Shown: positions 7,900 through 22,151, numbered from the stretch's first letter. The stretch: DNA of 55,971 nt from an uncultured Candidatus Saccharibacteria bacterium (GCA_964456235.1 CAYWDX010000001.1:267210-323180); one strand, 5' to 3'. The notes: generated by a model from the sequence alone, not told the origin. A program made the numbers and translations.

Positions 7900-9663
7900 A
7901 TGACCAAGGCATCGAACCAGACGATCGCCGAGTTGCTTCGTGAAATCGGCGAACATCTTGCCATGCAAAATGTTCCGTTCAAGCCGCGGGCGTACGAGAA
8001 GGCTGCGCTCACGATTGAAAATCTTGAGGAAGAACTTGCCGACACGTATTCGATCGGCGGCATGAAAGCGCTCAAGGAAATTCCGGGCGTGGGGCAGTCG
8101 ATCGCCGAAACGATTGAAGAGTTCATCAAAACCGGAAACGTGAAATATTTTGAAGGATTGAAGAAAAAAACGCCGGTTGACTTGTCCGAGCTCTCCCGCG
8201 TGGAGGGTTTGGGGCCGAAGGGGATCAAGAAATTGTACCAGGCTTTGGGCGTGAGTAATTTAGGGGAGCTCGAAAAGGCGGCGAAAGCGGGGAAGATTGC
8301 GAAGCTGGAAGGCTTTGGCCCGAAGAGCGAAGAAAAAATCTTGAAAGGGATCACCTTCGCGAAGACGGCGGGCTCTCGCACGGTGCTTGGGTTTATCATG
8401 CCGCGCATCCGCGCACTCGAAGCAGAGCTCGCGAAGGTGCCGGGCGTCACGCGCGCGACCTCCGCCGGTTCTGCGCGCCGGCGGAGAGACACGATCGGCG
8501 ATATCGACTTCCTCGTTGTTTCTAAAAAGCCGAAGGCGATTATGGATTATTTTGTAAAAATGCCGAGCGTGATTTCCGTGATCGCGCAGGGCGAAACAAA
8601 ATCGTCGGTAAAAATAAAACCGGGCATCAATGTCGACCTCCGCGTGGTCCCCGCCGAATCCTACGGCGCCGCCCTCAACTATTTCACGGGCTCAAAAGAC
8701 CACAATGTTGCCCTCCGCAAGATCGCGGTCGCGAAGGGCTGGAAACTCAATGAATACGGGCTCTATGAGCTGCCCCGCGGCATGGCCGCCAAAAAAGGCG
8801 GCGAAGAAAAGATGATCGCTGGCGCGTCAGAGGAAGCGCTCTACCGCGCTTTCGGCATGGACTATATCGAGCCGGAATTGCGCGAGAATACCGGCGAACT
8901 CCAAGCGGCCCACACACATACGCTGCCCAAAATAATTGGCTACGATGGTCTCGAAGGCGATCTCCAGGTGCAAACGAACTGGACGGATGGCAGTGACTCG
9001 ATCGAGGCGATGGCAAAGGCGGCGATGGCGCGGGGTTTGAAATATATGGCGGTAACCGACCATACGAAACGCCTTGCGATGACGCACGGCCTCGACGAGA
9101 AGCGCATCGTGCAGCAGGGGAAAGAAATTGACACGCTCAATAAAAAATTTGGCGCGAAGTTCAAAATCCTTAAAGGAACCGAATGCGATATCCTCAAAGA
9201 CGGCACCATGGATTTGCCTGACGAAATTTTGGCAAAACTTGATGTGGTTGGTGCATCGGTCCATTCGTTTTTTGGCCTCACGCGGGCAGAACAAACGGCG
9301 CGCGTGAAGCGAGCGATGTCGAATCCGCATGTCGACATTTTGTTCCATCCGACCGGCCGCATCTTGAACCGGCGCGAGGCGTATGATATTGATATTGATG
9401 CCATCGTCGCGCATGCGAAGCAGACGAAGACCGTCCTTGAAATCGACGCCTATCCAGACCGCTCTGATTTGAAAGACGACCATATTCGGAAGTGCGTCGA
9501 GGCGGGCGTGAAGATGTCGATTGATTCCGATGCCCACTCGATTACCCATTTCCCATTTCTCGAATATGGCATCGCGCAGGCGCGCCGGGGCTGGGCATGC
9601 AAGCGTGATATAATCAATGCCTGGCCGGCAGAAAAAATGAAGGGTTTTTTAAAGAAATCTTAA
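7900..9663 (+). CDS. polX: DNA polymerase X family protein with C-terminal PHP domain (PolX)
   Basis: HhH motifs (IPGVGQSIAETI, VEGLGPKGIKKL, LEGFGPKSEEKI), nucleotidyltransferase GSARRRRDTIGDIDFLV, and PHP motifs (TDHT, SVHS, DSDAHS). Confidence 0.9.
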   Translation: MTKASNQTIAELLREIGEHLAMQNVPFKPRAYEKAALTIENLEEELADTYSIGGMKALKEIPGVGQSIAETIEEFIKTGNVKYFEGLKKKTPVDLSELSRVEGLGPKGIKKLYQALGVSNLGELEKAAKAGKIAKLEGFGPKSEEKILKGITFAKTAGSRTVLGFIMPRIRALEAELAKVPGVTRATSAGSARRRRDTIGDIDFLVVSKKPKAIMDYFVKMPSVISVIAQGETKSSVKIKPGINVDLRVVPAESYGAALNYFTGSKDHNVALRKIAVAKGWKLNEYGLYELPRGMAAKKGGEEKMIAGASEEALYRAFGMDYIEPELRENTGELQAAHTHTLPKIIGYDGLEGDLQVQTNWTDGSDSIEAMAKAAMARGLKYMAVTDHTKRLAMTHGLDEKRIVQQGKEIDTLNKKFGAKFKILKGTECDILKDGTMDLPDEILAKLDVVGASVHSFFGLTRAEQTARVKRAMSNPHVDILFHPTGRILNRREAYDIDIDAIVAHAKQTKTVLEIDAYPDRSDLKDDHIRKCVEAGVKMSIDSDAHSITHFPFLEYGIAQARRGWACKRDIINAWPAEKMKGFLKKS

Positions 9664-9679
9664 TTAAAAAATTATTAAA

Positions 9680-10258
9680 ATGACCCCTGCCGTTCCCCAG
9701 CGAAGCAGCGAGCGCCGCGAGAAATTACCAACGAAAAAGCAAGTAGTGGCGGGCTTTGTCGTCTATCGGCGGACGTCGGACGGCATCAAATATCTGCTTC
9801 TCTATCGGCGCGGTAACTATTGGAATTTCCCCAAGGGGCACTTTGAGCCAGGGGAGCGGAGCATCGACGCCGCGCTTCGCGAGCTTGAAGAAGAAACGGG
9901 CATCAAGAAATCAGAATTGCGCGTGGTGCCCGAGTTCCGCGGCTACGAACGTTTTTATTTCCGCATCGGCAACCAGGGCATCTATGACACGGTAATTTTA
10001 TTCCTGGCAGAAACACACAAGGCCGAGGTGCGCATCACGCCTCGCGAGCATAGCGGTTTTGGATGGTTCCTGTACCAGGACGCGCTCGGCGTGATCGGGA
10101 AAAAATATGGCGATACGCGCAAGGTGTTGAAGCAAGCGAACGACTTTTTACGGGAACGCGCTGCGCGCTATCGCGGAGAACACCGAGGGGAGCACCGGGG
10201 TGAACATCGAGGCGAACATCGCGGGGAGCATCATCGCAGCGCGCATCAGGCGAAATAA
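9680..10258 (+). CDS. NUDIX hydrolase (Ap4A-hydrolase-like) with C-terminal RGEH x5 repeat tail
   Basis: Nudix box GHFEPGERSIDAALRELEEETGI. C-terminus is RGEHRGEHRGEHRGEHRGEHHRSAHQAK. Confidence 0.85.
   Translation: MTPAVPQRSSERREKLPTKKQVVAGFVVYRRTSDGIKYLLLYRRGNYWNFPKGHFEPGERSIDAALRELEEETGIKKSELRVVPEFRGYERFYFRIGNQGIYDTVILFLAETHKAEVRITPREHSGFGWFLYQDALGVIGKKYGDTRKVLKQANDFLRERAARYRGEHRGEHRGEHRGEHRGEHHRSAHQAK
10172..10231 (+). repeat. five tandem 12-nt units encoding RGEH
   Basis: cgcggagaacac / cgaggggagcac / cggggtgaacat / cgaggcgaacat / cgcggggagcat. The units differ at synonymous positions. Confidence 0.9.
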
Positions 10259-12092: not shown

Positions 12093-12402
12093 GGGGACGC
12101 ATTGGTTTTGATAGCGATGTGTCATGGGTTTGCGGGCCGATGGCAGCGGCGTAATCGCTGCATGAACTAAAACTGCCAACGAACAAGTTGCAGTTCCGAG
12201 TTTCGCTTTTGCGTAACTCGGGATCGGCTACTTCGGGTCTCTTGAGGTAACACCGGTCTTATATAAGGGGACTGGCAGGGCGCCGACGATTCTAGGCGCT
12301 CCGCAAGAACCAGAATCATTCGGCCTAACTTGATTTAGGACACGCCCGTAGACGGCCCATCGACTTCATCGCTACACAAGGGTTCGAATCCCTTCGTCTC
12401 CA
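12093..12402 (+). ncRNA. ssrA: tmRNA (SsrA), tag ANEQVAVPSFAFA
   Basis: 5' GGGGACG pairs with 3' CGTCTCC, giving the G3:U wobble. T arm is AAGGG-TTCGAAT-CCCTT with discriminator A. The internal tag frame gcc aac gaa caa gtt gca gtt ccg agt ttc gct ttt gcg taa is at 12175-12216. smpB lies 3 kb away. Confidence 0.85.
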
Positions 12403-12472
12403 CAAAACAAAGATTGATAGTGTATGATTAATATATCTAGTTCGTAACTGTTAGGCGGCATGCACCAATAAA

Positions 12473-15187
12473 ATGAAAAAGGGCATACGGTTATTTTCTT
12501 CAGTCTTCATCTCATCGGTTGTGGCTTCAGGAATCATCACTCCTGTATTTGCCCAACTTGGCGGTGTCACTGCTCCGCCCGCTCCGGTTGAACCAAGCCA
12601 GATTGTTGCGCCCATGGTCCCATCCGCAGATACTATTCCGCCGGTCATATCGGGTGTCCTCGAGGCGTCCCTTCTCCCGACTGAAGCCACGATAGTATGG
12701 GCGACCGACGAACTCGCGGTCTCAACGCTCGAATACGGCACGAGCCAAAACTACGGCTCGCAAGCGGCCATTGGTGCAAGTGCACTCCTCGTCCATACCG
12801 CCACTCTTTTAAACCTCACGCCCGGCACGACCTACTATTATTGCATTCACGCGACCGATTTGACGAATAATGCTGCGCAGTCGTGCCCGCATGCTTTTAC
12901 CACGGCAGCTGCTCCGGCTCCTTCGAGCGATTTGGTCGGGACGACTTCCGTCGTTCTTGACGCGAATCCGCCTACTGTTTCGCTCATCACCATTGCTGCG
13001 ACCGGGACCTCGACTATTACTATTACGTGGACGACCGATGAAGTTGCGAACGCTGAAGTCGAATATGGGACGACGGCCGGATATGGCTCCGTATCTGATC
13101 TCGACAGCAATTTAGCGCTTACTCATTCGGTGACTTTGGCCAATCTCACGCCCAGCACCGAATATCATTATCGAATCAAATCGAGTGATGAGGTTGGCAA
13201 TCTTGCCGCAACAACCGACGAAACATTCACCACGAATGCATTGCCGCAGGTGTCCGTCGGTCTCACTGCTCCAGAAGCAACCTCAAGCGGATCCCTCACG
13301 AACGGCAGCCAAAATATTTCCGTAAGTGTTTCGTCCGTCGTGTTTTCTGGCATCGAAACGGCGAGCGTGGGGACTTCATCCGTGGTTATTCACTGGACGA
13401 CCGATCTGCCATCGGATTCGCAGGTAGAATATGGCGACGGCGTGCTCTTTGGATCGGCAACAACGCTCGACCGCGCGCTCATCACCGATCACTCCGCAAC
13501 GATCACCAATCTTTCGCCACATACCAATTATATTTTTCGGGTCAAATCAAAACCCTTTGGAACCTCGGTCGCAACAGTTTCAGGCAATCATGAATTCAAC
13601 ACACTTGCAGGAACAGTTCTCGCGAGCGCTCCGGCGGATGTGAGCAATGTCCAGTCGCCGGGCATTACCACGTCAACGGCGATGATCGCTTGGAACACCG
13701 ATGTGAATGCAACCGGGGAGGTGCAGTACGGAATAAGCACTGCGTACGGCGAATATGCTGCTCCCGACGCCAATCTTTCGATGTCGCATGCCATTGTTTT
13801 GAGCGATCTTGCGCCAAGCACCCTCTATCATTATCGGGTGAAATCGGTGAACGTTGCGGGAGACATTACATATTCAGAGGATTATGCTTTCACCACCCTT
13901 TCGACCGGTTTGGCCGGCCCGTCACCGGCAGGTTCTCAATCTTCATCCGGCGGAACTGCGGTGGGCGTAACAGCGCACATCCCTACGGCTCTTTCAAATA
14001 TTACTATTGCGTCGCACGATGAAAACTCTGCGACACTTACCTGGAGCGTGGCATCGGCGCACGCTGATGCAGCGGAACTATACGACATTCGCTATAGCAC
14101 CCAGCCGATTACGGCGAATAACTTTATGGATGCAGTCCAGGACCGGACAACCCCGATTTTGTATCCGGACGTATCGCCCAGCGGCGCCATCCGCACGTAC
14201 CTCGTGGCAGGTCTGCAACCTAATACGACCTATTATTTTGGCTTGAAATCAAAATACGAAACGAGCGATTGGTCGCTGCTTTCGAATGTTGTTTCCGTCA
14301 CAACTCCACCGGCTAGCTCGGGGCCTTCGAGCGGCAGCGGAGGTTATTACGATCGCATTAATGCGCCGATCGTGACGGGTGCGGAAGGTCTTGATTCTCA
14401 GATTGTGCTTAACTGGAAAAATCCAAACACCGCGAATTTTGTCCGAAGCATGATCGTGGTAAAGAAAAACGGCGGATATCCAACCTCGCCGCAGGACGGG
14501 CAAATTATCTACGAAGGCAGGGGCGAGACGTTTGCCGATGCCAATCTCACGAATGGCACAACGTATTATTATGCTCTCTATTCCTACGACCATGCGAAAA
14601 ACTACTCGTTGCCGGTGCATGTGTCGCTTGCTCCGAAACAGGGAGTCTACCAAGAACAACTTATTGAACACCCGGTCATTGTTTCTAAAACCAGCGTCAA
14701 ACACTTTGTCGAAGTGCTAAAAAAAGGATCACACGATATCGAGGTTGAACATCTTCAGCAACTTTTGGCGGCGGGCGAAGGGCTCTATCCTGAAAAATTA
14801 ATTACCGGATATTTCGGCACGCTGACCGAGCAAGCGGTAAGGCGTTTTCAGGCCCAGCATAATCTCCCGCAGACCGGCATCACCGATGGAGCAACGCAAA
14901 AAGAACTCACCGCAGTTTCTAAAGCCGAGTTCGTCTTGGAACTTCCTCACGATGTCGAACTTTTCGAGCGTGATGTGTATTACGGGCAAACGGGTCCCGC
15001 AGTGGAATATCTACAAAAATTCTTGATCTACGAAGGAAGCTATGCGGAAGCGATCGTAAGCGGTTATTTTGGAGATTATACCCGCAATGCGGTGATTAAA
15101 TTCCAGAAAAAATATGGCGTAAATCCCGCCGTAGGATTCGTTGGCCCCAAGACGCGCCACGCAATGCGCAAGATCACCGGCTTTTGA
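12473..15187 (+). CDS. large secreted surface protein: tandem fibronectin-III / purple-acid-phosphatase-N-like domains plus two C-terminal peptidoglycan-binding (PG_binding_1) domains
   Basis: Signal peptide MKKGIRLFSSVFISSVVASG. At least five repeats of the pattern T.T..W.TDE.A...VEYG....YGS......L...H...L..L.P.T.Y.YR..S. C-terminal GYFGTLTEQAVRRFQAQHNLPQTGITDG and GYFGDYTRNAVIKFQKKYGVNPAVGFVGPKT. Confidence 0.75.
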   Translation: MKKGIRLFSSVFISSVVASGIITPVFAQLGGVTAPPAPVEPSQIVAPMVPSADTIPPVISGVLEASLLPTEATIVWATDELAVSTLEYGTSQNYGSQAAIGASALLVHTATLLNLTPGTTYYYCIHATDLTNNAAQSCPHAFTTAAAPAPSSDLVGTTSVVLDANPPTVSLITIAATGTSTITITWTTDEVANAEVEYGTTAGYGSVSDLDSNLALTHSVTLANLTPSTEYHYRIKSSDEVGNLAATTDETFTTNALPQVSVGLTAPEATSSGSLTNGSQNISVSVSSVVFSGIETASVGTSSVVIHWTTDLPSDSQVEYGDGVLFGSATTLDRALITDHSATITNLSPHTNYIFRVKSKPFGTSVATVSGNHEFNTLAGTVLASAPADVSNVQSPGITTSTAMIAWNTDVNATGEVQYGISTAYGEYAAPDANLSMSHAIVLSDLAPSTLYHYRVKSVNVAGDITYSEDYAFTTLSTGLAGPSPAGSQSSSGGTAVGVTAHIPTALSNITIASHDENSATLTWSVASAHADAAELYDIRYSTQPITANNFMDAVQDRTTPILYPDVSPSGAIRTYLVAGLQPNTTYYFGLKSKYETSDWSLLSNVVSVTTPPASSGPSSGSGGYYDRINAPIVTGAEGLDSQIVLNWKNPNTANFVRSMIVVKKNGGYPTSPQDGQIIYEGRGETFADANLTNGTTYYYALYSYDHAKNYSLPVHVSLAPKQGVYQEQLIEHPVIVSKTSVKHFVEVLKKGSHDIEVEHLQQLLAAGEGLYPEKLITGYFGTLTEQAVRRFQAQHNLPQTGITDGATQKELTAVSKAEFVLELPHDVELFERDVYYGQTGPAVEYLQKFLIYEGSYAEAIVSGYFGDYTRNAVIKFQKKYGVNPAVGFVGPKTRHAMRKITGF

Positions 15188-15249: not shown

Positions 15250-15687
15250 CTATTCTCCCCGCCGCATCTCGCGGACGTGTGCACGCTTTTTGAGTGCCTC
15301 GCGCTTGTCGGATTTTTTCCGCGAGCTGCCCAGGCCAAGCTCAATTTTTATAAAACCACGTTTGACATAAGCGCGCAGCGGTATGAGTACGCTGCCTTTC
15401 CCGTGGAGCGCGCCGGTAAATTTTTTGATTTCGTCTTTCGTGAGAAGTAAGCGCCGCGCCCGATCTTCTTCGTAGCCCGCCGGCATATTCTTCGGTTGGT
15501 ACGGCGGGATATGGGAATTGACGAGCCATGCTTCGCCGCCACGGATCAGTGCGCGGCCGCCCGCGATCTGCATCTTCCCGCCCTTCGCACTTTTCACTTC
15601 GTGGCCAAACAGTTCTATGCCGGCCTCGCAGGTCTCGTCGATATCATAGTCGAAGCGCGCGCGGCGATTTTCAGCAATCGTTTCCAT
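15250..15687 (-). CDS. smpB: SsrA-binding protein SmpB
   Basis: IAENRRARFDYDI...EAGIELFGHEVKS...G...I....A......EAWLVNSHIPPY is the canonical SmpB pattern. Confidence 0.92.
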   Translation of the reverse strand: METIAENRRARFDYDIDETCEAGIELFGHEVKSAKGGKMQIAGGRALIRGGEAWLVNSHIPPYQPKNMPAGYEEDRARRLLLTKDEIKKFTGALHGKGSVLIPLRAYVKRGFIKIELGLGSSRKKSDKREALKKRAHVREMRRGE

Positions 15688-15743: not shown

Positions 15744-17447
15744 ATGCAATATCGACCCATCGAGGAGGAGATACGGGCGATTGTCGCTGCGGTGCTCGGT
15801 AGCGATGCCGCGCCGGTCGAAATTGCGGTCCCTGAAAAGGAGAATTTCGGACACTATTCCACGAATGTGGCTTTGCGCCATGGCGGTCCAGGGTCGCCGC
15901 TCGCGCGCGCCGAAGAATTTGCCAGGAAAATTGCCGCCGCCGCGCCCGCCGGATTTTTCGAGCGTGTCGAGCCGGCCGCGCCCGGCTTCATTAATTTTTG
16001 GTTAAGCAAGCAGACGATCGTTAACCATTTCTTAATGGTCGCGCGCGAGCGGCATTTTGGAGAAACGAATGTTGGCGACAGGAAGACGGTGATCGTCGAA
16101 TCTTCTTCGCCGAATGTTGCGAAGACGCTGAATGTGGGGCATTTGCGCAATACGATCATCGGCGTGGCGCTCGCAAATATTTATGAAGCGCTGGGGTATC
16201 GGGTGGTCCGGTGGAATTATATCGGTGACTGGGGGACGCAATTCGGCAAGTTGATCGCTGCCTACAAGGCGTGGGGTGATCGTGCGGCCATCGAACGAGA
16301 GCCGCTTGAAGAATTGCAAAAATTGTACGTGCGCTTCCACGAGGAAGAGAAATTATCCCCCGAACTTGCGAAGCGCGGGCAGGAAGAATTTAAAAAGTTG
16401 GAATCGGGCGACCGCGAAAATAAAAAATTGTGGGAATGGTTCCGCGATGGGTCAATTGGCGAACTGAAGGTCGCGTACCAGGAACTTGGCGCCGAATTCG
16501 ACGAGTGGATCGGTGAGAGTTTCTTTAATAAAGAAGTCGGGCCGCTCGTACGCGATCTCGTAGAGCAGGGGATCGCCGTTCAAAGCGAAGGAGCGATCGT
16601 GATTCGACTCGACGAATTTAATTTGCCGCCGGCGCTCATCCAAAAATCCGACGGTGCGAGCGTGTATCTCACGCGCGACATTGCAAATCTCAAATACCGC
16701 TTGAAGAAATATAAGCCGACGAAGATCGCTTATGTGATCGGGAATGAACAGTCATTCCAATTTGAACAACTCTTCGCGGTCGCGAAAAAACTCGGCCTCA
16801 TGGGCGCCGAGTTGATGCATGTAAAATACGGCCTCGTTCTGGGCGAGAGCGGTAAAAAATTTTCCACGCGCGAGGGGAATAGTGTTGCGATGCGCGATAT
16901 CATTGCGAAGGCGATCGAACGTGCCCGCAGCCTTGTCGAGAAGAAAAATGCTGATTTGCCCGCCGAGGAAAAGGAACGTGTCGCCCGGGCCGTGGCGCTC
17001 GGCGCGCTCAAATACTACGACCTCAAGGAGAATCGAACGACCGACATCGTTTTTGATTGGGATCAGATGATGGATTTTACGGGAGACAGCGCTCCCTATC
17101 TTCAATACACCTACGCGCGCCTCGTAAATATTTTGCGGAAGGCTGGGAAAATCGGGAAAACAGATATTGCCCTTGCAGATACCGTGCCGGAACTCGCACT
17201 CGCGCGGAAGATTTTTGAATTTCCGGCGGTCGTCAAGGTGGCCGGGGCCATGTATTCGACGAGCGTGCTCGCGAGCTACCTCCACAAGCTCGCCGTTGCT
17301 GCCAATAAATTTTACGAAACGACGCCGGTGCTCGCCGATGAAAATATCGCGCGAAAAAACGCGCGCCTCACACTGATTGAAGTCGCCGCGAGGACGCTCC
17401 GCTCGGGCCTGGAACTTTTTGGCATCGAAACGCCAGAGAAAATTTAA
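15744..17447 (+). CDS. argS: arginyl-tRNA synthetase
   Basis: SSPNVAKTLNVGHLRNTIIG (HIGH region), the FSTREGN (MSTR-type) motif and a DALR-type C-terminal anticodon-binding domain. Confidence 0.95.
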   Translation: MQYRPIEEEIRAIVAAVLGSDAAPVEIAVPEKENFGHYSTNVALRHGGPGSPLARAEEFARKIAAAAPAGFFERVEPAAPGFINFWLSKQTIVNHFLMVARERHFGETNVGDRKTVIVESSSPNVAKTLNVGHLRNTIIGVALANIYEALGYRVVRWNYIGDWGTQFGKLIAAYKAWGDRAAIEREPLEELQKLYVRFHEEEKLSPELAKRGQEEFKKLESGDRENKKLWEWFRDGSIGELKVAYQELGAEFDEWIGESFFNKEVGPLVRDLVEQGIAVQSEGAIVIRLDEFNLPPALIQKSDGASVYLTRDIANLKYRLKKYKPTKIAYVIGNEQSFQFEQLFAVAKKLGLMGAELMHVKYGLVLGESGKKFSTREGNSVAMRDIIAKAIERARSLVEKKNADLPAEEKERVARAVALGALKYYDLKENRTTDIVFDWDQMMDFTGDSAPYLQYTYARLVNILRKAGKIGKTDIALADTVPELALARKIFEFPAVVKVAGAMYSTSVLASYLHKLAVAANKFYETTPVLADENIARKNARLTLIEVAARTLRSGLELFGIETPEKI

Positions 17448-17538
17448 TTAAAAATTTATTACTATTGTGAGTGGGCGATACACCGCGCACGACACGTTTT
17501 CGTTGTAAAAGCCCGTACAATCTGATAATTTGAAGGGA

Positions 17539-20500
17539 ATGGCCAAGCAATCTGCCAATAATCCTCGCAATTTTTTAAATGATGGCTTCGATTTGCCGAA
17601 GCTCGAGGAGAAAGTGCTGGCCTACTGGGACGAGAAAAAGATTTTTGAAAAATCGCTTGCCGCGACCAAGAAGGGCGAGCCCTACGTCTTTTACGAGGGG
17701 CCGCCGTATGCGAATGGGAAACCGGGAATCCACCACGTTCTCGCGCGCGTCGTGAAGGACGTCATGCTGCGTTACAAAACCATGCGTGGGTATCACGTTG
17801 CGCGCAAGGCCGGGTGGGACACGCACGGTCTCCCCGTTGAAATGGCCGCCGAAAAAGCGCTGGGCTTGAAATCGAAACGCGACATCGAAAAATTTGGCGT
17901 CAAGCGATTCAACGAAAAGGCGAAGGAGCAGGTGTGGATTTATAAAGATGAGTGGGAGCGCCTCACGCGACGGATTGGGTACTGGCTCGATCTTAAGGAT
18001 GCGTATGTCACCTACGCGCCTGAATATATAGAGACGATTTGGTGGACGCTCGCGCAAATCTATCGCCGCAAGCTTCTCTATAAGGGGCACAAAGTGGTGC
18101 CGTGGTGCCCGCGCTGCGGAACGGCCCTCTCCTCGCATGAACTGGCGCAGGGGTACCAGGAGGTGGTTGATAATTCCGTTTTCATTAAATTTAAATTAAA
18201 ACCCGGACAGCGGATCGCGAATTTTGTTACCGACGATGCGACCTCCGTGCTTTCTTGGACCACGACGCCTTGGACGCTTCCCGGAAATGTCGCACTCGCG
18301 GTTGGCGAAAATATCAATTATGCCTTCGTGAGGACGACGGCGCCGGATCGCGCTTCCTATCTTGTCGCAAAAGATCTGGCCGCGGAAATTTTTAAAGACA
18401 GCGACTTCGCAGTCCTCGGGGAAATTCCTGGCCGACGTCTTGTTGGCCTTGCATACCAGCCGCTTTTCAATGTGAAGCCACTCCAAACTGATGCCGCGCA
18501 TAAAATTTATCCGGCATCGTTCGTGACGACGACGGAGGGCACAGGCGTCGTGCATACGGCGGTCATGTATGGCGAAGACGATTATGCGCTCGGCAAAAAA
18601 GTTGGCCTGCCAGAATTCCACACCGTGAGCGAGGAAGGAAAATTTGTTGACGAGGTGCCGGGGCTCGCGGGGGATTATGTCAAGGCAAAAAATACCGAAG
18701 AAAAAATCTTTGAATACATGCGCGGTCGCGGGAATCTTTTCCGCATCGTCCCGTTCAAGCATGAATATCCGCACTGCTGGCGCTGCGGTACTGCGGTTCT
18801 GTATTACGCGCGTGACTCGTGGTTCATCGCGATGAGTAAGCTGCGGAAGCAGCTGCTCGCGCAGAACAAAAAAATTAATTGGATGCCGCAGCACGTAAAG
18901 AAAGGACGCTTTGGCGAATGGCTGCACGAAGCGAAGGATTGGAATTTGTCGCGCGAGCGTTACTGGGGCGCGCCCTTGCCGATCTGGGAATGTAAAAAGT
19001 GTGGACATACGGCGGCGATCGACGGGCTCGACTCCCTTTCGAAGCTGGTTGGTCCCGCGCAAAATCGTTACTGGGTGATGCGCCATGGCGAGGCGGAGCA
19101 TAACGTCTTGGGGATACTGGACAGCGGGCCGCGAAATTCTCCACTCACGCCAAAAGGCAAAAAAGAGGTGGCGCGCGAGGCGAAGCGCCTTAAAAAAGCC
19201 GGGATCGACGTGATTATTTCTTCTGAAGTCATGCGCGCGAAACTGACGGCCGAGATCGTAAAGAAAGAGCTTGGCGTGAAGCACCTGCACTTCGACAAGC
19301 GCCTCAACGAAATCTTTTTTGGGCCGAAATTCGAAGGAGGGCCGGTCCGCGCGTATTGGACCGCGTATCCGACGCATGAAGAACGTTACGAAAAACGGCC
19401 GCCGGGCGGCGAGTCGTTGCGCGATGTGCGCGCCCGCGCGTGGCAGCTTCTCAAGGATTGCGAAAAGAAATATAGCGGAAAGAAAATTTTATTTGTAAGC
19501 CATGGCGACCCGATCATCATGATGATCGAAGCGGCGACTGGCCTATCAGAAAAGAAAACCGTTGCTGATTATCTTGAAAGCCGCGGAATGCTTCATAGCT
19601 TGTACCCTAAAAAGGGAGTGCCCAGAGCAATGCACGTGCGTTGGGGTCCGCGCGACGAAACTGGCGGCCTCGATCTCCACCGGCCGTTTGTCGATGGCGT
19701 GACCGCGGTATGTCGAGAATGCGATGGCGGCACGATGCACCGCGTGCGTGAAGTTGCTGATGTTTGGTACGACTCGGGCGCAATGCCGCTCGCGCAGGCG
19801 CACTTTCCATTTGAGCCCGACGCGGCCCATACGGCGGCCATGAAAGCGACTCAAAAGTCTGCCGCGATCCCCAAGCCGCAGAAATTTATCGCGTACCCGG
19901 CCGACTATATTGCTGAAGGGATGGACCAAACGCGCGGGTGGTTTTACACGATGCTTGCGATTGCAACTGCATTGGGCTACGGGGCGCCCTATCGCAATGT
20001 GATCACCTTCGGCCTCATTAACGATAAATTCGGGCACAAGATGTCAAAGTCGAAGGGCAATATTGTCGAGCCGTTTTCGGTGATCGATACGTATGGCGTT
20101 GACGCAGTGCGCTGGTATTTCTATTCCGGGACGCCCTTCGGCGAACCAAAAAATTTTGACGAACAGGACATCGCGAAAACGCTTCGCAAAACCCATCTGA
20201 TCATTTACAACTCGTTCGTATTCTGGAAGACGTATGCGGCGCCCGACGGTACCGATCCGGTCGGCGCGCCGATGATGAGTGCACCGAAAAGCAGAAATAT
20301 TCTCGACCAGTGGATTCTATCGCGCCTGGCCGAACTGCTCGCGGCGGCCACGAAAAAACTCGATCATTACGAAATCCGAGAAGCGGCGATCGAGATCGAC
20401 GCCTTCGCGGACGATCTTTCCCGGTGGTACATTCGCCGCTCGCGCCGCCGTCTCCAAAAACCGGAACATGCGAGTGATTATAGGAGTGCTTCGGCCACGC

Positions 20501-21162
20501 TCGGTTACGTTCTCTTGGCCCTCGCGACCGTGATGGCGCCCTTTACGCCATTTTTCTCGGAAGTGATGTACGCCGCACTTCGTGGCAAGAAGGAATCGGT
20601 GCACCTTGAGCCATGGCCAACGAGGGGAACGCCCGTCCGCGCGCCACAGTCCGCACCCACCCTCAATAAATCATTAAATGCTTCCATGGCCGCCGTCCGC
20701 GAACTCGCTGCGCTCGGCCTCGCCAGGCGCGCGGAAGCCGGCGTGAAGGTCCGCCAACCGCTCGCTTCGCTCGCGGTTGGCGTCTCCCTCCCCGAGCCGC
20801 TCAAAAAAATTCTCGCCGAAGAGGTGAATGTTAAGAAGATTTTAATGAAGCAAACATTAAAGAACGGCGTCGAGCTCGATCTTGCCGTGACGCCCGAACT
20901 CCGCGCCGAGGGGATCCTCCGCGAAGTCGCGCGGATGGTGCAAGAGCTTCGCCAGAAAGCAAACCTCGCGCCTCGAGACCGCATAGCCCTCTTTATCGAA
21001 GGGGCGCCGGCGCTCCATGAAATACTTCGCGCGCACGAGGGTGCCTTGAAACTTGATGTAGGCGCTCGCTCAATTGAATATAAGCGCTCCAGCAGATTTA
21101 CGGCAGAAGAAGAAACAAAATTCGAAGGCGAGACGATCTGGATCGGTCTCCAGAAGGCTTAA
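17539..21162 (+). CDS. ileS: isoleucyl-tRNA synthetase (type 2-like) with an internal histidine-phosphatase domain insertion
   Basis: PPYANGKPGIHHVLARV, the editing domain TTPWTLPGN, WECKKCGH, DLHRPFVD, GMDQTRGWFY and KMSKSKGN. An RHGE-type domain is inserted at about 19060-19660. ATG 17539 is preferred over the upstream in-frame start at 17530. Confidence 0.95.
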   Translation: MAKQSANNPRNFLNDGFDLPKLEEKVLAYWDEKKIFEKSLAATKKGEPYVFYEGPPYANGKPGIHHVLARVVKDVMLRYKTMRGYHVARKAGWDTHGLPVEMAAEKALGLKSKRDIEKFGVKRFNEKAKEQVWIYKDEWERLTRRIGYWLDLKDAYVTYAPEYIETIWWTLAQIYRRKLLYKGHKVVPWCPRCGTALSSHELAQGYQEVVDNSVFIKFKLKPGQRIANFVTDDATSVLSWTTTPWTLPGNVALAVGENINYAFVRTTAPDRASYLVAKDLAAEIFKDSDFAVLGEIPGRRLVGLAYQPLFNVKPLQTDAAHKIYPASFVTTTEGTGVVHTAVMYGEDDYALGKKVGLPEFHTVSEEGKFVDEVPGLAGDYVKAKNTEEKIFEYMRGRGNLFRIVPFKHEYPHCWRCGTAVLYYARDSWFIAMSKLRKQLLAQNKKINWMPQHVKKGRFGEWLHEAKDWNLSRERYWGAPLPIWECKKCGHTAAIDGLDSLSKLVGPAQNRYWVMRHGEAEHNVLGILDSGPRNSPLTPKGKKEVAREAKRLKKAGIDVIISSEVMRAKLTAEIVKKELGVKHLHFDKRLNEIFFGPKFEGGPVRAYWTAYPTHEERYEKRPPGGESLRDVRARAWQLLKDCEKKYSGKKILFVSHGDPIIMMIEAATGLSEKKTVADYLESRGMLHSLYPKKGVPRAMHVRWGPRDETGGLDLHRPFVDGVTAVCRECDGGTMHRVREVADVWYDSGAMPLAQAHFPFEPDAAHTAAMKATQKSAAIPKPQKFIAYPADYIAEGMDQTRGWFYTMLAIATALGYGAPYRNVITFGLINDKFGHKMSKSKGNIVEPFSVIDTYGVDAVRWYFYSGTPFGEPKNFDEQDIAKTLRKTHLIIYNSFVFWKTYAAPDGTDPVGAPMMSAPKSRNILDQWILSRLAELLAAATKKLDHYEIREAAIEIDAFADDLSRWYIRRSRRRLQKPEHASDYRSASATLGYVLLALATVMAPFTPFFSEVMYAALRGKKESVHLEPWPTRGTPVRAPQSAPTLNKSLNASMAAVRELAALGLARRAEAGVKVRQPLASLAVGVSLPEPLKKILAEEVNVKKILMKQTLKNGVELDLAVTPELRAEGILREVARMVQELRQKANLAPRDRIALFIEGAPALHEILRAHEGALKLDVGARSIEYKRSSRFTAEEETKFEGETIWIGLQKA

Positions 21163-22151
21163 TGAATTTTTAATCCTACGGAGCGTTTCACGGCGTCGAT
21201 TTTCTTTTCTGCCACGCGGGCCGCGCGCTCGGTGCCTGCCTGTAAGAGATTTGCGAGCTCGCGCGCGCCATCGAGAAGATTGGTTTTCTTGCTCCGGAAT
21301 TCCGTAAAGTGATCGGCAACCAATTCGGCAAGCCGCGCCTTGAGCGAGGAATATTTTTCGCCGGCGAACTCGCGCACGATGGCCTGCGGTTCCATGTGCG
21401 AGAGGGCGGAATAAATTTCAATCAAATTGGCGAGGCCCGGTTTTTTGTGCGGCTCGTAGGTTATCTCGGATCCCGAGTCGGTCACAGCGCGCGCGATTTT
21501 TTTCTGGATATCTTTCGGTGCGTCATCCAGGAAGAGACATCCTTCCGGCTGTGACTTCGACATTTTCTTCGCCGGGTCTTTCAGGTTCATCACACGCGGA
21601 TTTTTCGTGAGGATCGCTTTCGGTTCCGTGAATGTTTTTCCAAATCGCGCGTTGAATTTCCGGGCAAGCGCGCGCGTCAGTTCAAGGTGCTGCAGCTGGT
21701 CATCGCCGACGGGCACCACGGCAGCGTCGTAGAGAAGGATGTCCGCGGCCATCAAGACCGGGTAGTCAAACAATCCGGCATTACTATTTTCTTTTTGTCG
21801 CGCGGACTTTTCTTTATATTGCGTCATCCGCTCAAGCTCGCCCATGGGAGTTACGGTGTTCAAAATCCACGCGAGTTCCGCATGCGCGGGGATTTCTGAT
21901 TGCTGAAAAATAGTTGAACGTTTTGGATCCAACCCGCCGGCGAGATACTCCGCAAAGGTTTCCAAAACCTGTTCCCGCTTCTCCTTCGGCTCAAAGGGTT
22001 CTGTCATCGAGTGGAGATCCGCGATGAAGAAGTGGCAATCGTACCTTCCCGAGCTCTGCAAATCAACGAAATTTTTGAGGGCCCCCAAATAGTTGCCAAT
22101 ATGGAGGCGTCCTGATGGTTGAATCCCTGAAACGAGGATGGGTTTTCTCAT
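21159..22151 (-). CDS. trpS: tryptophanyl-tRNA synthetase
   Basis: MRKPILVSGIQPSGRLHIGNYLGALKNFV (HIGH) and KMSKSQP (KMSKS). The listed 458-aa ORF has a non-homologous Arg/Ser-rich N-terminal extension that I discard. Confidence 0.95.
   Translation of the reverse strand: MRKPILVSGIQPSGRLHIGNYLGALKNFVDLQSSGRYDCHFFIADLHSMTEPFEPKEKREQVLETFAEYLAGGLDPKRSTIFQQSEIPAHAELAWILNTVTPMGELERMTQYKEKSARQKENSNAGLFDYPVLMAADILLYDAAVVPVGDDQLQHLELTRALARKFNARFGKTFTEPKAILTKNPRVMNLKDPAKKMSKSQPEGCLFLDDAPKDIQKKIARAVTDSGSEITYEPHKKPGLANLIEIYSALSHMEPQAIVREFAGEKYSSLKARLAELVADHFTEFRSKKTNLLDGARELANLLQAGTERAARVAEKKIDAVKRSVGLKIH

Follow-up and report, generated by a model that had tools for sequence, protein, structure and literature searches.

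The stretch of DNA analysed here (the window) is 55,971 nucleotides long and comes from an uncultured bacterium deposited as Candidatus Saccharibacteria (GCA_964456235.1, CAYWDX010000001.1:267210-323180); the genome belongs to the Paceibacteria, within the candidate phyla radiation. Its gene for isoleucyl-tRNA synthetase (IleRS), ileS, encodes a synthetase with a histidine-phosphatase domain nested inside its CP3 subdomain. An open reading frame (ORF) scan places the gene in a single unbroken ORF at 17530..21162 on the plus strand, 1210 amino acids (aa) long if counted from a TTG codon. The true start is probably the ATG at 17539, because it is preceded by a GAAGGG motif resembling a Shine-Dalgarno sequence and because the resulting 1207 aa equal the length of the database copy of this protein (P0001). 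Positions marked 'ORF aa' below are counted in the ORF, which opens at the TTG at 17530. The features of the gene are as follows (the 120 clusters cited are the closest homologues, described below).

17539..21162, plus strand: ileS, type-2 isoleucyl-tRNA synthetase, 1207 aa from the ATG (ORF, TIGR00392, Pfam).
17722..17739, plus strand: class I signature in the non-canonical GXHH form, PGIHHV (sequence; G60, H65 and H66 invariant in 68 aligned family sequences).
18931..18969, plus strand: CP2-CP3 linker, AKDWNLSRERYWG (sequence).
18991..19002, plus strand: first Cys pair of the CP3 zinc knuckle, CKKC, aa 488-491, just 5' of the insert (aligns with C461/C464 of Thermus thermophilus IleRS).
19051..19662, plus strand: full insert, histidine-phosphatase domain and return linker, ORF aa 508-711, in CP3 (structure alignments, AlphaFold2).
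19072..19554, plus strand: core match to His_Phos_1 (PF00300), ORF aa 515-675 (E 2.5e-34, 119.1 bits against a cut-off of 21.7).
19081..19089, plus strand: RHG motif, comprising Arg518, the putative nucleophile His519 and Gly520 (R, H and G each in 120/120 clusters).
19234..19236, plus strand: second putative catalytic Arg, Arg569, in an S-x3-R motif (R in 120/120 clusters, as is S565).
19309..19311, plus strand: Glu594, candidate general acid, in NEIFFG (E in 119/120 clusters, D in 1/120).
19501..19503, plus strand: second putative catalytic His, His658, in VSHGDP (H in 120/120 clusters).
19711..19722, plus strand: second Cys pair of the CP3 zinc knuckle, CREC, aa 728-731, just 3' of the insert (aligns with the C-A-C of T. 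thermophilus IleRS).
20038..20052, plus strand: KMSKS motif (K834, M835, K837 and S838 invariant in the family, S836 nearly so).

The ileS product scores 829.9 bits against the NCBIfam equivalog TIGR00392 (ileS; cut-off 621.4), and its Pfam architecture consists of tRNA-synt_1 in two stretches around His_Phos_1, plus Anticodon_1 and DUF5915. The closest solved structures are those of the Priestia megaterium IleRS2 (8C8W) and of T. thermophilus IleRS (1ILE), with which the protein shares the N-terminal Rossmann half, the CP1 editing domain, the CP3 zinc knuckle, KMSKS, the anticodon-binding domain and DUF5915; the CP1 editing motif WTTTPWTLPGN is also present. From this orthology we infer that the protein charges tRNA-Ile with isoleucine, and a second ileS was not seen within the 56-kb window. 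The GXHH motif has been described for some IleRS2 and confers mupirocin hyper-resistance in the P. megaterium enzyme (PMC10485003). The yeast IleRS counterpart of the CP2-CP3 linker, 453ARDWNVSRNRYWG465, lines the pocket for tRNA-CCA and reveromycin (PMC7955072). CP3 comes after this linker, holds a zinc motif in T. thermophilus, and varies in topology between IleRSs (PMC7191050, PMC7955072). In an AlphaFold2 model of residues 4-1100, the mean predicted local distance difference test (pLDDT) is 84.9 and the predicted template modelling score (pTM) is 0.81, with the blocks of the insert at pLDDT 90-96.

The position of the insert is defined by three comparisons. When the protein is aligned to 1ILE, query residues 18-500 match chain residues 9-476 and query residues 711-1069 match chain residues 488-821, leaving 205-210 or so residues in the window IleRS where 1ILE has approximately 11. 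A comparable gap appears against 8C8W, and a clean gap lies opposite the insert when the alignment is made to insert-free IleRSs of sister lineages, whose loop is approximately 25 aa long. The window IleRS thus differs from 8C8W and 1ILE in having approximately 205 extra residues that constitute a predicted second enzyme in CP3. The insert is bracketed by the two Cys pairs (the second within the motif CRECDGG, aa 728-734), and all four of these cysteines are invariant in the 68 aligned sequences. These alignments place the domain within the zinc-knuckle loop, on the structurally variable surface subdomain CP3. The knuckle appears to clamp both ends of the phosphatase domain, and the IleRS would therefore keep its own fold, editing site and signature motifs; we class it, on its sequence, as an otherwise normal type-2 IleRS (IleRS2). 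The G+C content is level across both junctions, and no direct or inverted repeats were found at the borders of the insert beyond short chance matches.

The core of the insert is a strong match to PF00300, and its motifs occur in the order RHGEAEHN (aa 518-525), MRAKLT (568-573), NEIFFG (593-598), GGESLRDVRARAW (626-638) and VSHGDP (656-661). Modelled alone with its flanks, the insert folds with high confidence (pLDDT 92.8, pTM 0.90), the RHG following strand E17-22 of the model. A Foldseek search of the PDB returned 302 chains at E≤0.001, and all of the 50 top-ranked chains (50/50) belong to the histidine phosphatase superfamily. Matches with a low root-mean-square deviation (rmsd) include PhoE (1h2e/1ebb), a phosphoserine phosphatase (iPSP, 4ij5), the glucosyl-3-phosphoglycerate phosphatase Rv2419c and the riboflavin-pathway phosphatase HFP (9mmh). 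The short phosphatases as a group align with template modelling (TM) scores of 0.63-0.72 and an rmsd of 2.4-3.3 Å, whereas the long phosphoglycerate mutases align at 4-11 Å. When a profile of 22 diverse inserts was compared with PDB sequences, PhoE was the best match (E 4e-34), followed by 4ij5 and CobC. The PF00300 score, the RHG motif, the second set of Arg, acid and His residues and the alpha/beta fold all agree with branch 1 of the superfamily.

More specific family assignments were tried and rejected. Scores fell below the cut-offs for phosphoglycerate mutase (dPGM_arch, 72.8 against 225; GpmB, 58.3 against 261; PRK01295, 56.6 against 316), for the alpha-ribazole phosphatase CobC (TIGR03162, 76.1 against 162.9) and for SixA (TIGR00249, 41.6 against 74.5, with the match confined to aa 515-584), and the NCBIfam equivalog cut-off for PspA was missed by a wide margin. 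On sequence and predicted fold, the domain is a PhoE-like branch-1 histidine phosphatase of approximately 190 aa from a subfamily that is as yet unassigned, with the build of a small phosphatase rather than that of a mutase. PhoE itself (YhfR, a broad-specificity phosphatase of Geobacillus stearothermophilus; 1EBB, 1H2E) resembles the insert in its short core of approximately 200 aa, in its catalytic set (R-H-G, R, E and H) and in its fold (TM 0.63-0.72, rmsd 2.9-3.3). In contrast to the insert, PhoE is free-standing; the two are only approximately 28% identical, and the insert belongs to a Patescibacteria-specific subfamily with a conserved N-x-Y lead-in and LT..G motifs.

These results bear on a sequence-only reading of the window, which had proposed an intact, phosphoglycerate mutase-like histidine-phosphatase domain within the catalytic body of an IleRS of about 1207 aa. 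The length is borne out when the protein is counted from the ATG at 17539, and the location of the domain is confirmed by the PF00300 match between two stretches of tRNA-synt_1. Every motif quoted in that reading was found at the place given, and the two His, both Arg and the Glu that it described as preserved are invariant or nearly so across the 120 clusters as well. It had also described the segment as in frame, without stops and without intein-like junctions, in agreement with the unbroken ORF, the lack of Hint or endonuclease matches and the absence of splicing residues. Its expectation of a permanent internal domain is upheld by the 1ILE alignment, the AlphaFold2 model and the conservation across the 120 clusters, and the alignment to type-2 IleRS that it called for (1ILE, 8C8W) gives approximately 210 residues against approximately 11. 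The description of the domain as mutase-like holds for the fold but not for a mutase identity, as the mutase cut-offs were failed and PhoE is nearer.

To place the architecture in its clade, we examined the 120 best homologue clusters, whose members range from 1103 to 1261 aa and share 53-67% identity with the window protein, and scanned one genome per species with two narrow peptide patterns (158 matched, of which the best 80 were kept). PF00300 is present in 120/120 of the clusters, and both junctions are covered by the query match in 80/80 of the loci retained as the best 80 of 158. The titles of the retained records name Candidatus Paceibacterota, Parcubacteria, Minisyncoccia, Kaiserbacteria, Liptonbacteria and Vogelbacteria, and some are metagenome-assembled genomes loosely labelled Saccharibacteria. 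The nested phosphatase is the norm for the IleRS of a large uncultured clade, not a peculiarity of the window genome. The sequence-only reading had asked for a survey of orthologs and had named the normal occurrence of such a domain at this position as evidence that would count against it. IleRSs of this clade do normally carry the domain there, which speaks against uniqueness only and leaves the reality of the architecture untouched. That the anatomy is as described and that the nested domain is conserved throughout the clade we hold with very high confidence.

The conservation of the insert is concentrated in its catalytic residues. Arg-His-Gly, Ser565, Arg569, Glu628 (in GES), Arg634, Arg636 and His658 are invariant in 120/120 clusters, and in a representative set of approximately 160 domain copies the position of Glu594 is occupied by E or D in nearly all. 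The remainder of the insert changes rapidly: its mean identity is 45%, against 69% for the N-terminal catalytic half of the synthetase. An invariant catalytic set in a fast-changing insert argues for a working enzyme and not a relic. Given these residues and the modelled fold, the insert is likely to be catalytically competent, which suggests a third catalytic site in the IleRS of the window genome. Across the family, net charges of the insert span -6 to +17 (+13 in the window copy). NCBI gives these proteins no more specific a name than 'class I tRNA ligase family protein' or 'isoleucyl-tRNA synthetase', and the phosphatase is thereby hidden.

CP3 is not the only place in which the domain is found. 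A second position in IleRS (site B) lies between D-x-W-F/Y-x-S-G and PAD(F/Y)IAEG-DQTRGWF, and is occupied in the IleRS P0258 and in many valyl-tRNA synthetases (ValRSs). A third (site C), just before the anticodon-binding domain, is occupied in P0163, P0198 and P0258. Each of these three IleRSs (1379-1419 aa) has two copies in different places: the first follows D-x-W-F-E-S-G or lies in CP3, and the second precedes the anticodon-binding domain. The IleRSs P0128 and P0154 carry copies in tandem in CP3. Both copies retain the catalytic residues in the two-copy IleRSs. In the window IleRS, a low-confidence loop (pLDDT <50; 19822-19860, ORF aa 765-777) inside an Ala/Lys-rich stretch, PDAAHTAAMKATQKSAAIPKPQKF, corresponds to site B, where other IleRSs and ValRSs carry the phosphatase domain. 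Proteins of the P0258 type occur on contigs of up to 1.06 Mb.

Domain-bearing ValRSs (P0389, P0398-P0516) belong to Magasanikbacteria-like Patescibacteria and carry the domain in two different loops, one of the occupied positions being equivalent to the CP3 site. Among the 120 best relatives of one domain-bearing ValRS, 32 have PF00300. A fragmentary ValRS, P0121, has four copies, and a fourth site, used in this protein, lies ahead of DWCISRQ. Every complete copy in the IleRSs mentioned above and in the ValRSs P0121 and P0201 retains the catalytic residues, while a few other ValRS copies lack the Arg or the Gly of the RHG, or both: the motif reads VHS in P0445 and P0446 and AHG in P0474 and P0495. 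ValRSs with 81% identity exist with and without the domain, separated by a clean indel of approximately 185 aa, which suggests recent gain or loss. In all, there are at least three nesting sites in IleRS and two to three in ValRS, with up to four copies per protein. Because the sites are distinct, multiple insertion events are indicated, and by their positions in the alignments the nestings are independent at three or more IleRS sites and two to three ValRS sites. A neighbour-joining tree of 288 phosphatase domains, which is too weakly resolved for nested-copy monophyly or counts of insertion events, places the IleRS-nested copies in several groups with a large free-standing group among them. 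C-terminal fusions were found with an arginyl-tRNA synthetase (ArgRS, P0192), with TsaC/Sua5 (threonylcarbamoyl-AMP synthase; P0164, P0178) and with a QueC-like PP-loop protein (P0253); each is rare, with one to two clusters.

When the insert alone was used as the query of an exhaustive search, 990 representative proteins matched at E≤1e-10. The best 150, which were inspected, comprise IleRSs with the insert, free-standing proteins of approximately 190 aa that are 30-45% identical to it, and odd architectures. The free-standing proteins belong to other Parcubacteria, among them Staskawiczbacteria and Nealsonbacteria. In the window, argS lies directly upstream of ileS, and in 71/80 of the related loci it is likewise upstream. 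In sister loci with the free-standing form, the phosphatase gene stands between these two genes. The genes concerned are as follows.

15744..17447, plus strand: argS in the window, directly upstream of ileS and in the same direction (ORF).
L081, 8001-8579: free-standing phosphatase gene.
L083, 8001-8567: free-standing phosphatase gene.
L085, 8001-8579: free-standing phosphatase gene.
L088, 5001-5597: free-standing phosphatase gene.
L089, 5001-5573: free-standing phosphatase gene.
L090, 5001-5564: free-standing phosphatase gene.

The order argS, phosphatase, ileS holds in 6/6 of the free-standing loci looked up, and the start of the phosphatase gene often overlaps the argS stop. The full order in the sister loci is smpB (minus strand), a UMP kinase gene in some, argS, the phosphatase gene, then a Nudix gene, a CYTH gene or nothing, followed by ileS and recO. 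The intervening gene is Nudix in L081 (8587-9033) and CYTH in L083 (8570-9160). PolX, Nudix, tmRNA, SmpB (minus strand), argS and ileS make up a wider synteny common to the window and the sister loci. The IleRSs of the sister loci lack the insert, retaining the CP3 Cys pairs around a loop of approximately 25 residues. They are 35-43% identical to that of the window and have a different type of signature motif, yet the order argS-phosphatase-ileS is the same. As the nested and free forms conserve the same residue set, they are, judging from these residues and the gene order, alternative states of one conserved association. Because sister lineages encode the module between argS and ileS, the association with class Ia synthetases would be old.

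Parts of this arrangement have known counterparts. The CP1 editing domain embodies the same principle, namely a catalytic domain in a loop of the Rossmann fold that gives one polypeptide more than one active site; in contrast to the insert, which is lineage-specific and lies in CP3, CP1 occurs in all IleRS, ValRS and LeuRS enzymes, where it hydrolyses mischarged tRNA. Aminoacyl-tRNA synthetases rank among the most thoroughly studied enzymes, and the inserted domains known from them act in editing or in the binding of tRNA. For an IleRS with an extra enzyme domain there is a curated precedent in NF040702 (ileS_w_GNAT, NCBIfam), but the extra fold there is a GNAT and not a histidine phosphatase, and the window protein, at 322.7 against a cut-off of 1999, is not a member. 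The mycobacterial proteins MutT1 (Nudix with a C-terminal RHG domain) and Rv2228c (RNase H with a CobC-like acid phosphatase) likewise join a phosphatase fold to an enzyme of nucleotides or nucleic acids; these are end-to-end fusions with other partners, whereas here the domain is nested in a class I synthetase. A specific relationship in sequence to these proteins was not found: the window protein scores 74.8 against PRK07238 (cut-off 326), and NF052459 was absent among the matches listed for the free-standing form and among those listed (25 of 32) for the IleRS. Extra synthetase domains (CP1, appended domains, GNAT) and fusions of phosphatases with nucleotide enzymes are therefore already known, and the sequences discussed here are public. 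We know of no role in translation for the histidine phosphatase superfamily. Our literature search turned up no account of a histidine-phosphatase domain in an IleRS or a ValRS; the words phosphatase and Patescibacteria do not occur in two recent surveys of IleRS diversity (PMC10485003; bioRxiv 10.64898/2026.02.03.703510).

The reading that we favour, with slightly less than even confidence, takes the domain for an active phosphohydrolase that is coupled to the class Ia synthetases and acts probably on a small nucleotide or phosphate by-product and not on tRNA ends. The nested domain would work as a phosphohydrolase beside the synthetase, and its substrate would be a small phosphorylated molecule of nucleotide type that is made or used in adenylate-forming reactions, with AMP or other nucleoside monophosphates, inorganic pyrophosphate (PPi) and the breakdown products of Ap4A-type side products as candidates. 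The association would be kept in one of two ways, by a neighbouring position in the operon or by nesting or fusion of the domain. The parts of this proposal differ in strength: operon position and fusions make functional coupling to aminoacylation reasonably probable, while a small-molecule nucleotide or phosphate as the substrate is at present a tentative suggestion. In favour of the latter, the TsaC and QueC-like fusion partners share with synthetases the conversion of ATP to an adenylate and PPi (later AMP); these families, whose characterised members work on small molecules, form adenylates and release PPi, and do not bind tRNA. The Nudix and CYTH families found in the adjoining slot act on nucleotide or polyphosphate substrates, which also argues for a small molecule, as does a net charge of -6 to +17, not steadily basic as would be expected of an obligate RNA binder. 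In addition, the existence of a separate protein, of copies in unrelated loops and of tandem arrays implies that the exact geometry relative to the CCA end is not essential. Of two roles put forward in the sequence-only reading, hydrolysis of nucleotide by-products would therefore fit better than dephosphorylation of tRNA ends, which is less supported.

Several observations weigh against this proposal. The occurrence of 81%-identical ValRSs with and without the domain implies that the synthetase needs no phosphatase, and a few ValRS copies have VHS or AHG in place of RHG. The argS-phosphatase-ileS synteny could be partly inherited and not selected. The fusions to ArgRS, TsaC and QueC-like proteins are weak evidence, as they could have arisen by loss of the stop codon between overlapping neighbours; for ArgRS in particular, the fusion is easily explained by read-through of an overlapping stop. 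Histidine phosphatases normally cleave phosphomonoesters, so that PPi would be an unusual substrate, and hydrolysis of AMP looks wasteful in a group that depends on nucleotide salvage.

Among other explanations, the domain may take part in tRNA-end repair, stripping a 3'- or 2'-phosphate, or the opened product of a 2',3'-cyclic phosphate, from damaged tRNA-Ile that the IleRS delivers as substrate. Each of the hosts, IleRS, ValRS and ArgRS, binds the acceptor end of tRNA, the insert comes after the CP2-CP3 linker, which in the yeast enzyme borders the CCA pocket, the net charge of the window copy is strongly basic, and there is a precedent in the E. coli CCA-adding enzyme, for which the phosphatase activity of the HD domain has been proposed to serve tRNA-end repair. 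A tRNA-end enzyme is not, however, expected as a separate 190-aa protein, in several unrelated loops and in two to four tandem copies, nor as a fusion partner of TsaC and of a QueC-like protein, neither of which deals with tRNA ends; moreover, the charge across the family is not consistently basic, and no branch-1 histidine phosphatase is known to us to act on RNA ends. We consider this explanation quite unlikely. Another alternative is a hitch-hiking housekeeping phosphatase with an unrelated metabolic or house-cleaning job, co-expressed with the synthetase or tolerated in permissive loops of compact genomes. This would account for insertion into variable surface loops (CP3 topology varies, and sites B and C are of low confidence in the model), for the alternation of presence and absence among 81%-identical ValRSs, for the kinship with broad-specificity phosphatases and for an insert that evolves faster than its host. 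It fits less well with the recurrence, at four sites at least, of nesting in an essential enzyme, which is far harder than end-to-end fusion, with the restriction of nesting to class Ia synthetases among the top matches, with a gene order kept even where the IleRSs are only 35-43% identical to that of the window, and with the nested form in 120/120 closest clusters and in the best 80 species genomes. Such a passenger is unlikely on balance.

The domain might instead dephosphorylate a protein, at phosphohistidine or another phospho-residue, with regulation of the synthetase, of nucleoside diphosphate kinase or of some other translation factor as the outcome. Two protein phosphatases of this fold are SixA and the RHG domain of MutT1, MutT1 pairs its RHG domain with a Nudix domain, a Nudix gene adjoins the free-standing form in some loci, and TIGR00249 (sixA) gives a weak match at the N-terminal end. 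That match is below the cut-off (41.6 against 74.5) and covers the first 70 residues only, the domain is full-size and PhoE-like and not of the short SixA form, and a partner kinase was not evident in the operon in the six loci looked up; regulation of this kind is improbable. Still less probable, and in our estimation a marginal case, is a non-catalytic module (structural, tRNA-binding or regulatory) whose residues are kept for ligand sensing: the persistence of the VHS and AHG copies and the potential of tandem arrays as binding platforms would suit it, but the catalytic residues are invariant in the IleRS clusters (Glu594 in 119/120) and kept in nearly all of the approximately 160 copies and in every complete tandem copy.

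An artefact or a selfish element, whether misassembly, a chimeric contig, an intein or a spliced-out mobile insertion, we regard as a negligible prospect. The insert does interrupt the conserved catalytic domain of an essential gene, which is an intein-like habit, but the whole protein folds as one unit in the model (pTM 0.81). The specific candidates were each rejected: misassembly or chimerism on the same architecture in 120 clusters and in independent assemblies of at least 80 species, together with the even G+C; an intein on the lack of Pfam matches to Hint, intein, LAGLIDADG or endonuclease families and on junctions (..VGPAQNRYW.. and ..TGGLDLHRPF..) that have neither a Cys/Ser start nor a His-Asn-Cys/Ser/Thr end; and a mobile element on the absence of flanking repeats beyond short chance matches.

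Taken together, the nested, operonic and ValRS forms point to an undescribed reaction linked to tRNA charging. One speculative extension is that Patescibacteria class Ia synthetases repeatedly gained the phosphatase cassette (in at least four loops of IleRS and ValRS, sometimes in two to four copies, or as an operon partner) because its activity is tied to aminoacylation, either clearing an inhibitory or toxic nucleotide by-product at its source or restoring chargeable tRNA ends. If the coupling is real, it would mean that tRNA charging in a major bacterial branch has an accessory reaction not recognised before, and could show how bacteria with ultra-small genomes deal with aminoacylation by-products or damaged tRNA. 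The nesting also provides a clean natural case of repeated domain insertion in which separate, nested and tandem forms can be compared, a help to work on protein evolution and on the engineering of insertions into synthetases. The feature should interest researchers on synthetases and on the candidate phyla radiation, and the question lends itself to direct testing, as the protein can be expressed and assayed.

Other features of the region surround this gene pair. No RNA element (such as a T-box) was found at the gathering threshold around ileS, within 15-23 kb of the window. A ppa gene was not seen within the 56-kb window, an observation that does not extend to the other parts of the genome. 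Downstream, trpS on the minus strand converges on ileS, an arrangement seen in 52/80 of the related loci; its ORF reaches 22535, with a likely start at the ATG at 22151, so that the cluster of aminoacyl-tRNA synthetase genes spans 15744-22151. At 7900-10258, a gene for a PolX-type DNA polymerase (HHH_8, DNA_pol_B_thumb, PHP) is followed by one for a Nudix hydrolase, and the same pair is also found upstream in L081 and L083. A tmRNA gene (12093-12403, tag peptide ANEQVAVPSFAFA) and smpB (15250-15687, minus strand) both lie just upstream of argS. Between them, at 12473-15187, is a gene for a 904-aa protein with repeated domains resembling fibronectin-III and the N-terminal domain of purple acid phosphatase, and with two peptidoglycan-binding domains.

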